A DNA stretch of 64,000 nucleotides from a virus. Its lineage: Duplodnaviria > Caudoviricetes. How positions within the stretch are numbered: the stretch's first letter is position 1; every line of letters starts with the position of its first letter. Positions 62,776 to 63,597 of the stretch are shown in pieces. Position numbers and translations under genes: made by a program. Where the stretch lies: IMG/VR virus record IMGVR_UViG_3300046804_003398; one strand, given 5' to 3'. The notes below the pieces were generated by a model, which saw only the letters and a list, made by a program, of their open reading frames with translations, was not told the origin of the DNA and searched no databases.

Positions 62776-63597
62776 TTATTAAGTGTTTGGCGTGAGATTA
62801 CCGCCTTCACTGTTGACCTTCGGTTAGATTATACCCATCTTGCGGACAGGCTTCCTAACTTATCCACGATCACGACTTGCGCCTATAATCGTATCCAACA
62901 TGACTGCCTTTTTAGGGTTGTGGCTTATCAACCTTAACCTAGAACTATTCAACCTTCATCCATCCGTCTGCCTTCGACAGCAGTTAAGTCTTGCGGACAC
63001 CGTTCAGACTCCGATTAACAACTAGTGTCTTGCGGACATTTCGTTGTCTGTGTTATCTTTCGACCACAGAGTTAAGTCACTTTCATCCTAGACAAACAAC
63101 GACTTTGCGTTTTTGTATATATGAACTGGATTTGAACCAGCAACACATAGCTTTACATAGCTATTACTCTACCATTGAGTTATCATGCACCTAACAATGA
63201 CGTGCGTTGTTTGTCGTTTCATATCCTTTTGGGATACAATATGCGACACGCCATTTGTGTTTCTCTTGCGGATACTTCACCGATTTTCAAGATCAAGTCC
63301 CTTGGTTGGCCTTTGGTCCTCTTTCTATCAATCTACATACGAGCATTTGATTGCGGTCTCACACCCGTATCTTTGGCTTAAATCTTACTCTTGGATGTTT
63401 TGCTGTGAGCAGTGGTCGGCGGCACCGTTACCGAACATATGCCAGTGTTACCCACACATGTTCTTTTTCTCACCATCGTCGGATATACTTCCACCTTTTG
63501 GATGAAAGTCACAGACTTTGCCATTTGTTTGAGTGTCCTAGTTGCCCAGGCGAGGGTCCGTTAGGGGACTACCTCTTTCATGAGTATTACTACTCAC
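62776..63597 (-). ncRNA. GOLLD-like giant structured ncRNA
   Basis: About 820 nt non-coding, higher GC than surroundings; four CCGCAAG (GCAA tetraloop) hairpins, CCCAAAAGG hairpin, 3' GGCGGTAATCTCACGCC end, embedded tRNA-like domain. Boundaries approximate. Confidence 0.7.
63117..63189 (-). pseudogene. degenerate tRNA-like domain inside the GOLLD-like RNA
   Basis: D arm ACTC-AATGGTA-GAGT, T arm GCTGG-TTCAAAT-CCAGT, 8-nt anticodon loop TATGTAAA, no CCA. Confidence 0.7.

Follow-up and report, generated by a model that had tools for sequence, protein, structure and literature searches.

A stretch of some 820 nucleotides with hardly any coding capacity, close to one end of a 64,000-nucleotide sequence of a tailed virus (IMG/VR record IMGVR_UViG_3300046804_003398; the whole of that sequence is called the window here), raises the question of which RNA the phage makes there, how it is made and what the tRNA-shaped element embedded in it may mean. 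A preliminary description of positions 62776-63597 had assigned the stretch, from remembered features, to the GOLLD RNAs, and had placed a second giant RNA, of the ROOL class, nearby. We conclude, with a probability of roughly 0.9, that the locus is the GOLLD gene of an uncultured freshwater jumbo phage, the Nus-aided synthesis and cage assembly proposed below being inferred parts of this reading; the family, its phage and tRNA-array context, the linker tRNA and the formation of cages are all already known from print.

The family assignment comes from a search of the window with Infernal against all of Rfam 15, in which the GOLLD model (RF02032) matched 62789-63256 on the minus strand with 206 bits and an E-value of 1e-57, above the gathering score of 150 bits. 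Model positions 1-416 of 416 were aligned without truncation and the pseudoknot columns were paired, with one of the ten pseudoknot pairs flagged as non-standard in the Infernal alignment. The same model gave 203-208 bits for three related loci (L001, L005 and L019). RF02032 represents the conserved 3' half of GOLLD only; because 63257-63600 is homologous to the 5' regions of other GOLLD loci, the conserved core extends from about 63600 to 62785 on the minus strand, a length of about 815 nt. To judge by its sequence, the stretch is a true GOLLD RNA that fits the family model over its whole length. The preliminary assignment was thus borne out by the model score, with covariation adding support, and its limits nearly equal those of the conserved core; it had given no strand, and the RNA lies on the minus strand. 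The GC content was also found to exceed that of the flanks, as described (0.40-0.46 inside, 0.33 and 0.36 outside). A blastn search of the region against the GenBank phage collection returned no match, which is no measure of rarity, and the nearest record (G001), itself an 18%-complete fragment, was without GOLLD. The main parts of the RNA are the following.

63257..63600, minus strand: GOLLD 5' domain, the variable half (iterated nhmmer homology, covarying first hairpin, fold z-score)
62789..63256, minus strand: GOLLD 3' domain, the conserved half, which contains the pseudoknot (RF02032 match)
63115..63190, minus strand: tRNA-shaped module with the 8-nt anticodon loop UAUGUAAA (Rfam tRNA model, 50.5 bits)
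62728..62788, minus strand: 3' trailer, not conserved, that the abundant RNA contigs include (contig ends at 62746, 62735 and 62728)

The less conserved 5' domain of about 350-420 nt that is expected of a GOLLD RNA, for a total length near 800 nt, was found at 63257-63600. Single-sequence nhmmer searches with this domain retrieved near relatives only; homology was reached only by iterating the profile, which aligned the whole 813-position unit to three loci of IMG/VR viral contigs (L019, L104 and L110) and parts of it to five others (L075, L081, L065, L088 and L077). A covarying structure among homologues, a check that had been named beforehand, was found: RNAalifold predicted 93 pairs over the nine-sequence alignment, and 72 of these had changed on both sides. 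Paired cells amounted to 89% and compensatory pairs to 75, against 37-41% and 26-37, respectively, when the 3' partners were slid by 1-3 columns (computed in Python), a control that is generous since the structure was derived from the same alignment. For the 3' domain, compensatory changes occurred in 61 of the 76 predicted pairs, against 17-31 in the slid controls. Within the 5' domain, the first hairpin (63596-63581, with a GNRA loop) showed compensatory changes at 6/6 pairs, and the domain had a fold z-score of -2.62, none of 100 shuffles folding as well. Compared with L019, eight pairs of this domain were altered on both sides, and the substitutions were clustered in few hairpins with the pairing mostly maintained.

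Exact CCGCAAG hairpins had been noticed at four places, and all four were recovered on the minus strand.

62839..62845, minus strand: CCGCAAG hairpin within the enlarged penultimate hairpin of the 3' domain (inserted with respect to the consensus loop of Rfam)
62990..62996, minus strand: CCGCAAG hairpin kept in the Rfam consensus (motif scan and RF02032 alignment)
63029..63035, minus strand: CCGCAAG hairpin kept in the Rfam consensus (motif scan and RF02032 alignment)
63265..63271, minus strand: CCGCAAG hairpin at the end of the 5' domain (aligned relatives also have a GNRA hairpin there)

Each of them forms a C-G-closed GCAA (GNRA) tetraloop hairpin, and for two of the four the string CGCAAG is also present in the Rfam GOLLD consensus. 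The 64-kb window holds six CCGCAAG matches on both strands together, against 1.87 expected, a number reached by none of 100 shuffles, and four of the six fall inside the GOLLD stretch. The first hairpin of the 3' domain retains the A-rich loop CAAAAG on a covarying stem. In the published GOLLD cage the conserved A-run loop L14 provides an A-minor contact (Kretsch et al., bioRxiv 10.1101/2024.12.08.627333), and the CAAAAG loop may be a candidate counterpart of L14.

Regarding how this RNA would be made, the region upstream of the core was described as carrying tandem sigma70-like promoters. Two such promoters were indeed found on the minus strand, and both recur in the same arrangement in L019 despite differing surrounding sequence. 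From upstream to downstream, the leader region contains the following elements.

63742..63769, minus strand: promoter P1, TTGACG-16-TATAGT (consensus scan, 10/12 matches)
63707..63727, minus strand: small hairpin between the promoters, GTTCGT ... ACGAAC (read from the sequence)
63660..63687, minus strand: promoter P2, TTGACA-16-TAAGAT, with an extended -10 TG (consensus scan, 10/12 matches)
63637..63646, minus strand: boxA-like GTTCTTTGAA in the leader (exact match)
63608..63623, minus strand: short leader hairpin directly before the conserved core (read from the sequence)

The counterpart of P1 in L019 is TTGACA-17-TAGGAT, and P2 is almost invariant there; the inter-promoter hairpin retains its stem with an altered loop, a G-U pair of the leader hairpin in the window is an A-U pair, and GTTCTTTGTA persists in the leader although 70 nt have been inserted immediately ahead of it. 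At 63690, just upstream of the -35 hexamer of P2, an insertion of 14 nt (CTTTTCGAAACTTT on the plus strand) is polymorphic: L001 and L005 have it, as do two of the four RNA contigs described below.

The boxA-like GTTCTTTGAA occurs as a single exact copy a few bases past the expected P2 start and is contained in all four RNA contigs. Its core, UCUUUGAA, matches the rrn boxA consensus of B. subtilis, AUGAUCUUUGAAA, which is bound by NusB (PMC13753749). Of 68 distinct IMG/VR GOLLD loci, 47 carry the motif (at most one mismatch) at a distance of 743-855 nt upstream of the conserved 3' motif, against a background of 0.13 per kb per strand. The decamer is not enriched in the whole window (nine matches with at most one mismatch, 11.6 expected), and the weight of the motif thus comes from its position across loci. 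The arrangement of an rrn-type leader, with a boxA-like element that follows the promoters and is conserved across loci, is therefore present in GOLLD, for which Nus binding is a prediction. Our literature search gave no paper linking GOLLD with boxA, and a search with the decamer gave primer lists only. The leader of the tmRNA in the same window parallels that of GOLLD, since a boxA-like GTTCTTTAAA at 55446-55455 on the minus strand stands 8 nt before the tmRNA 5' end (55438), behind a small hairpin. The RNA strand showed no intrinsic terminator. A helix joining leader and trailer, of the type of the rRNA processing stems, was considered and rejected: the best duplex (-25.2 kcal/mol) was matched by 84 of 300 shuffles, and the 9 bp at its core do not hold up in relatives, a substitution interrupting them in L001 and L005 and L019 having no counterpart.

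Transcription of the locus was observed in river metatranscriptomes. Seven runs contain all sampled words of the stretch, and four of them, from four studies, were analysed by contigs; the runs were chosen for containing the stretch, and contigs give no true ends, strand or within-RNA profile. In each of the four runs one contig spans GOLLD (62746-63686, 62735-63718, 62728-63691 and 62218-63707), with k-mer depths of 492, 1012, 1412 and 1326, whereas the contigs on neighbouring phage protein genes of the same runs have depths of 0-8, missing contigs (e.g., 61223-62024) not being evidence of silence. Several of these neighbouring contigs show 0-2 differences from the window, and since they match it, the phage was present in the runs. 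Contigs of the tmRNA reached depths of 82-283. The abundant stable RNA that is expected of GOLLD was thus seen at the contig level. Uniform carry-over of DNA was rejected as a source, since it cannot yield a contrast of more than 100-fold between GOLLD and its neighbours. The RNA contigs run continuously through the tRNA-shaped module and extend over both the boxA-like element and the P2 region; their upstream ends, at 63686-63718, lie upstream of the -35 hexamer of P2. Because the P2 region is included, part of the RNA starts upstream of P2, and some transcripts probably start at P1. Adapter remnants at the ends of the GOLLD, tmRNA and neighbouring contigs were all of the type 'first mate on the plus strand', which under usual stranded libraries weakly hints at RNA of the minus strand. 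As a separate observation, RNA contigs over 58265-59255, which include an ORF of 234 aa (58276-58980), had depths of 17-41, several-fold above those of other protein genes, and carried 17-19 differences, so they derive from a variant strain.

The surroundings of the gene are those of a large tailed phage. The window encodes a portal protein, a large terminase, a baseplate wedge, a tail fibre and PhoH, and the 35-74 kb of related IMG/VR records, which are 11-28% complete, imply a genome near 270-300 kb. About 12 tRNA genes (55652-57856) are on the same strand as GOLLD, and the tRNAs and the tmRNA lie within 8 kb; the tmRNA announced for this island is real (55054-55438, minus strand, 119.8 bits). 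The phage or prophage context beside tRNA genes that is typical of GOLLD is therefore found here. In L019, GOLLD stands between tRNA genes, and the similarity to the window extends from the hairpin after P1 to near 62781. Two other relatives, L003 and L004, carry the orthologous 1008-aa neighbour (83% identical) without GOLLD upstream of it, which indicates that GOLLD is dispensable for close relatives; from this comparison of loci, GOLLD and its promoters behave as a cassette that is gained or lost. The place that GOLLD would occupy holds unrelated sequence with tRNAs in both (L003 1-1510, L004 1-2076).

Regarding the neighbouring genes, ORFs of 1008 aa (59642-62668) and 834 aa (49499-52003) on the minus strand flank the RNA island, and relatives of the 1008-aa protein were seen only in similar freshwater viral contigs. 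Pfam and PHROGs searches on the neighbouring ORFs (1008, 234, 107, 834, 137, 130 and 69 aa) returned nothing except PhoH. A perfect 10-bp inverted repeat, ATAATCTCAT ... ATGAGATTAT, spans the start codon of the 1008-aa ORF (62668-62700, minus strand). Apart from a single change in the 5' arm, L001 and L005 share the repeat, which may block translation initiation of this ORF.

The module at 63115-63190 is located in what is the A/U-rich linker of the Rfam GOLLD consensus. It retains a cloverleaf, a GG D-loop and a TTCAAAT T-loop; the Rfam tRNA model places one inserted base in its anticodon loop, and ARAGORN reported it as 'tRNA-???', with no identity. A canonical decoding tRNA, with a 7-nt loop, U33 and a readable anticodon, was not found at these positions. 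Its equivalent in L019 is a canonical tRNA-Thr(UGU), and the D and T stems of the two show compensatory changes; elsewhere in the subclade the linker tRNAs are Lys, Cys, Gly, Ser or have a CUA anticodon. In a sample ascertained by pattern, which comprised 76 distinct GOLLD loci, a tRNA occupies the linker in nine, and in many of the others one lies directly upstream instead. The module is unusual only in its non-canonical loop, which may reflect recent decay; the window, L001 and L005 do not differ in the module, so that any selection that followed the change of the loop is not measurable. The linker tRNAs also covary at the elbow: those of L019 (8611-8684) and L104 (10954-11028) have AG instead of GG in the D-loop together with TGC (G55) in the T-loop, and those of the window, L110, L075, L088 and L077 have GG together with TTC (U55). 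In L077, the linker tRNA (5865-5938, within its GOLLD at 5583-6046) has a CUA anticodon of the amber-suppressor type and was called tRNA-Pyl by ARAGORN.

What the module does in the GOLLD RNA can be read in several ways. We propose tentatively, and with considerable doubt, that the linker tRNA no longer decodes and is kept as tRNA-shaped cargo or bait, in 10-14 copies per cage, on an RNA made via the host boxA/Nus machinery. If this were true, GOLLD would be a phage-made mimic in the form of a stable RNA particle that engages tRNA-binding enzymes, and not a tRNA gene with long flanks. Rather unlikely, in our view, is that the locus serves as a regulated tRNA store, the cage shielding the embedded tRNA from RNase P/Z until it opens, as in the 'inhibited storage' idea put forward for the GOLLD linker tRNA (PMC12990946). 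The linker position is the same as that of the tRNA-Phe of Mycolicibacterium, relatives have canonical linker tRNAs (Thr, Lys, Cys, Gly, Ser and the CUA suppressor), and the RNA contigs are unbroken through the tRNA, contigs being unable to reveal cleavage; however, the 8-nt loop with no anticodon recognised by ARAGORN makes a normal decoding product doubtful, and the low frequency of linker tRNAs in the sampled loci rules this out as a general role in the family. It is more improbable still that the module acts specifically as a multi-copy bait or decoy on the cage for a defence enzyme of the host that targets tRNA, or for some other tRNA-binding factor. The cloverleaf kept by the D- and T-stem changes relative to L019 in spite of the non-canonical anticodon loop, the great abundance of the RNA and the heavy investment of the phage in tRNAs and tmRNA would suit such a bait, but the loop of a module that is identical in three loci is perhaps a recent decay, and the linker is inside the cage in published structures, so that a protein would need to enter.

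The second giant RNA of the preliminary description had been placed about 7 kb away. The stretch concerned, at 56000-56650 on the minus strand, is an expressed, promoter-driven and ORF-poor RNA of about 600 nt: it is GC-richer, has its own TTGACA...GATAAT promoter, and the RNA contigs over 56.1-56.5 kb have depths of 46-63. Two strings within it, GAGGAAGUUCGAUGCU and ACAGAACAGCGGCUAC, resemble CR-I and CR-V of bacterial RNase P RNA, a likeness that speaks against ROOL. These CR-I- and CR-V-like strands, at 56230-56625, could pair as a P4 of 5 bp in which a U is bulged, and a divergent RNase P RNA is plausible here on the strength of these motifs; the RNase P models RF00010 and RF00011 gave no match even at E<=10, and the stretch has no Rfam match at all. 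Its homologues among the fetched loci are confined to L001/L017 and L019, too few to judge an association with linker tRNAs. Two segments of the stretch have exchanged places in L003, and 'goes back' joints occur there in RNA contigs. That this is a ROOL RNA, so that the phage would run two different cage RNAs, is very improbable: its length is close to the ROOL mean of 581 nt (PMC5737381), but RF03087 was silent in the window at its gathering score and stayed so when the threshold was relaxed to E<=1 for 52000-64000 and to E<=10 for 55950-56700. Five related virus records were likewise without a match at E<=1, which adds little weight since control genomes were also silent. The ROOL identity is thus refuted as far as the Rfam model can detect it, and with it the idea of two giant RNA classes within 7 kb finds no support; the dedicated RNA-scaffold or decoy programme suggested in the preliminary description is a conjecture.

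The chance that the stretch at 62776-63597 is a protein-coding region or a self-splicing intron, and not GOLLD, is practically nil, since the GOLLD model score refutes both, the antisense ORFs of 106 and 123 aa that favour coding have no Pfam match, intron families are absent from the window at Rfam gathering scores and from 52000-64000 at E<=1, and base pairs are kept by substitutions relative to the relatives. As had been described, no credible ORF is present: a single ORF on the RNA strand reaches 40 aa (it has 48 aa), and the antisense ORFs do not exceed 123 aa. The reading as GOLLD therefore stands, the intron and coding matches that had been proposed as a refuting check being absent.

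Previous studies of this family provide close comparisons for the GOLLD RNA of the window. GOLLD cages, their inward-facing linker and linker tRNAs are in print (bioRxiv 10.1101/2024.12.08.627333; PMC12990946). GOLLD env-38, of 833 nt, was solved by cryo-EM as a 14-mer (PDB 9MEE; Kretsch et al., bioRxiv 10.1101/2024.12.08.627333). Like env-38, the RNA of the window belongs to the Rfam family, has two domains and a variable linker in about 0.8 kb, carries GNRA and A-rich loops and comes from an environmental phage-type locus by tRNAs. Unlike env-38, its 5' domain can be aligned only within its own subclade, and it has additional GCAA hairpin expansions in the 3' domain and a tRNA-shaped linker module. 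The GOLLD of Streptococcus agalactiae, of 700 nt, forms a 12-mer, and its 3' domain alone forms a 10-mer (PMC12990946); the conserved 3' domain, which drives dihedral assembly in that system, is shared with the window. The S. agalactiae RNA is without several helices. In Mycolicibacterium, according to the account of Morgado et al. (2020) cited in PMC12990946, a tRNA-Phe lies in linker J13/15. As far as that account goes, the two share a tRNA in the single-stranded linker between the halves and a locus within a tRNA array, and they differ in that the Mycolicibacterium GOLLD is on a bacterial chromosome with a canonical tRNA, whereas that of the window belongs to a freshwater jumbo phage and has an 8-nt anticodon loop. 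ROOL (RF03087; PMC5737381) is likewise large and ornate, is found in phages or prophages close to tRNA arrays and also forms cages, but its fold is unrelated and neither the window nor its relatives match it. The upstream region can be compared with bacterial rrn leaders (PMC13753749, PMC4807359), with which it shares tandem promoters, a small hairpin, a boxA-like element with the same core and a long structured untranslated RNA. It differs from them in that the cargo is not rRNA, the hairpin lies between the promoters and no end-joining processing helix was found.

From these likenesses a possible course of events for the GOLLD gene can be outlined. Host RNA polymerase would initiate at P1 and/or P2, and the boxA-like leader, by analogy with rrn operons, would recruit a host antitermination complex of the NusB/S10 type. 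Antitermination would in turn permit fast synthesis of the long untranslated RNA and its escape from Rho. The RNA would then fold into its 5' and 3' domains and, if it behaves as the solved members of the family, self-assemble into a dihedral cage of 10 to 14 copies held together by kissing loops and by GNRA-tetraloop and A-minor contacts. The linker and its tRNA-shaped module would face the cavity of the cage. Since the neighbours of the gene include about 12 tRNA genes, the tmRNA of the phage and a further stable RNA, the setting is most likely a translation-takeover programme of the phage.

GOLLD RNAs are among the largest non-coding RNAs of bacteria and phages, with a cage that is solved, and the copy in the window adds no new class to them. 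It does add evidence from the field, since this phage GOLLD reaches much higher levels in river communities than the phage tmRNA or the messages of neighbouring phage genes. The occurrence of a normal tRNA-Thr in L019 and of a tRNA-shaped module at the same place in the window provides a natural pair for comparing the linker tRNA as cargo, product or scaffold. Finally, a boxA-like leader common to most phage GOLLD loci suggests a route by which a long untranslated RNA may escape Rho.
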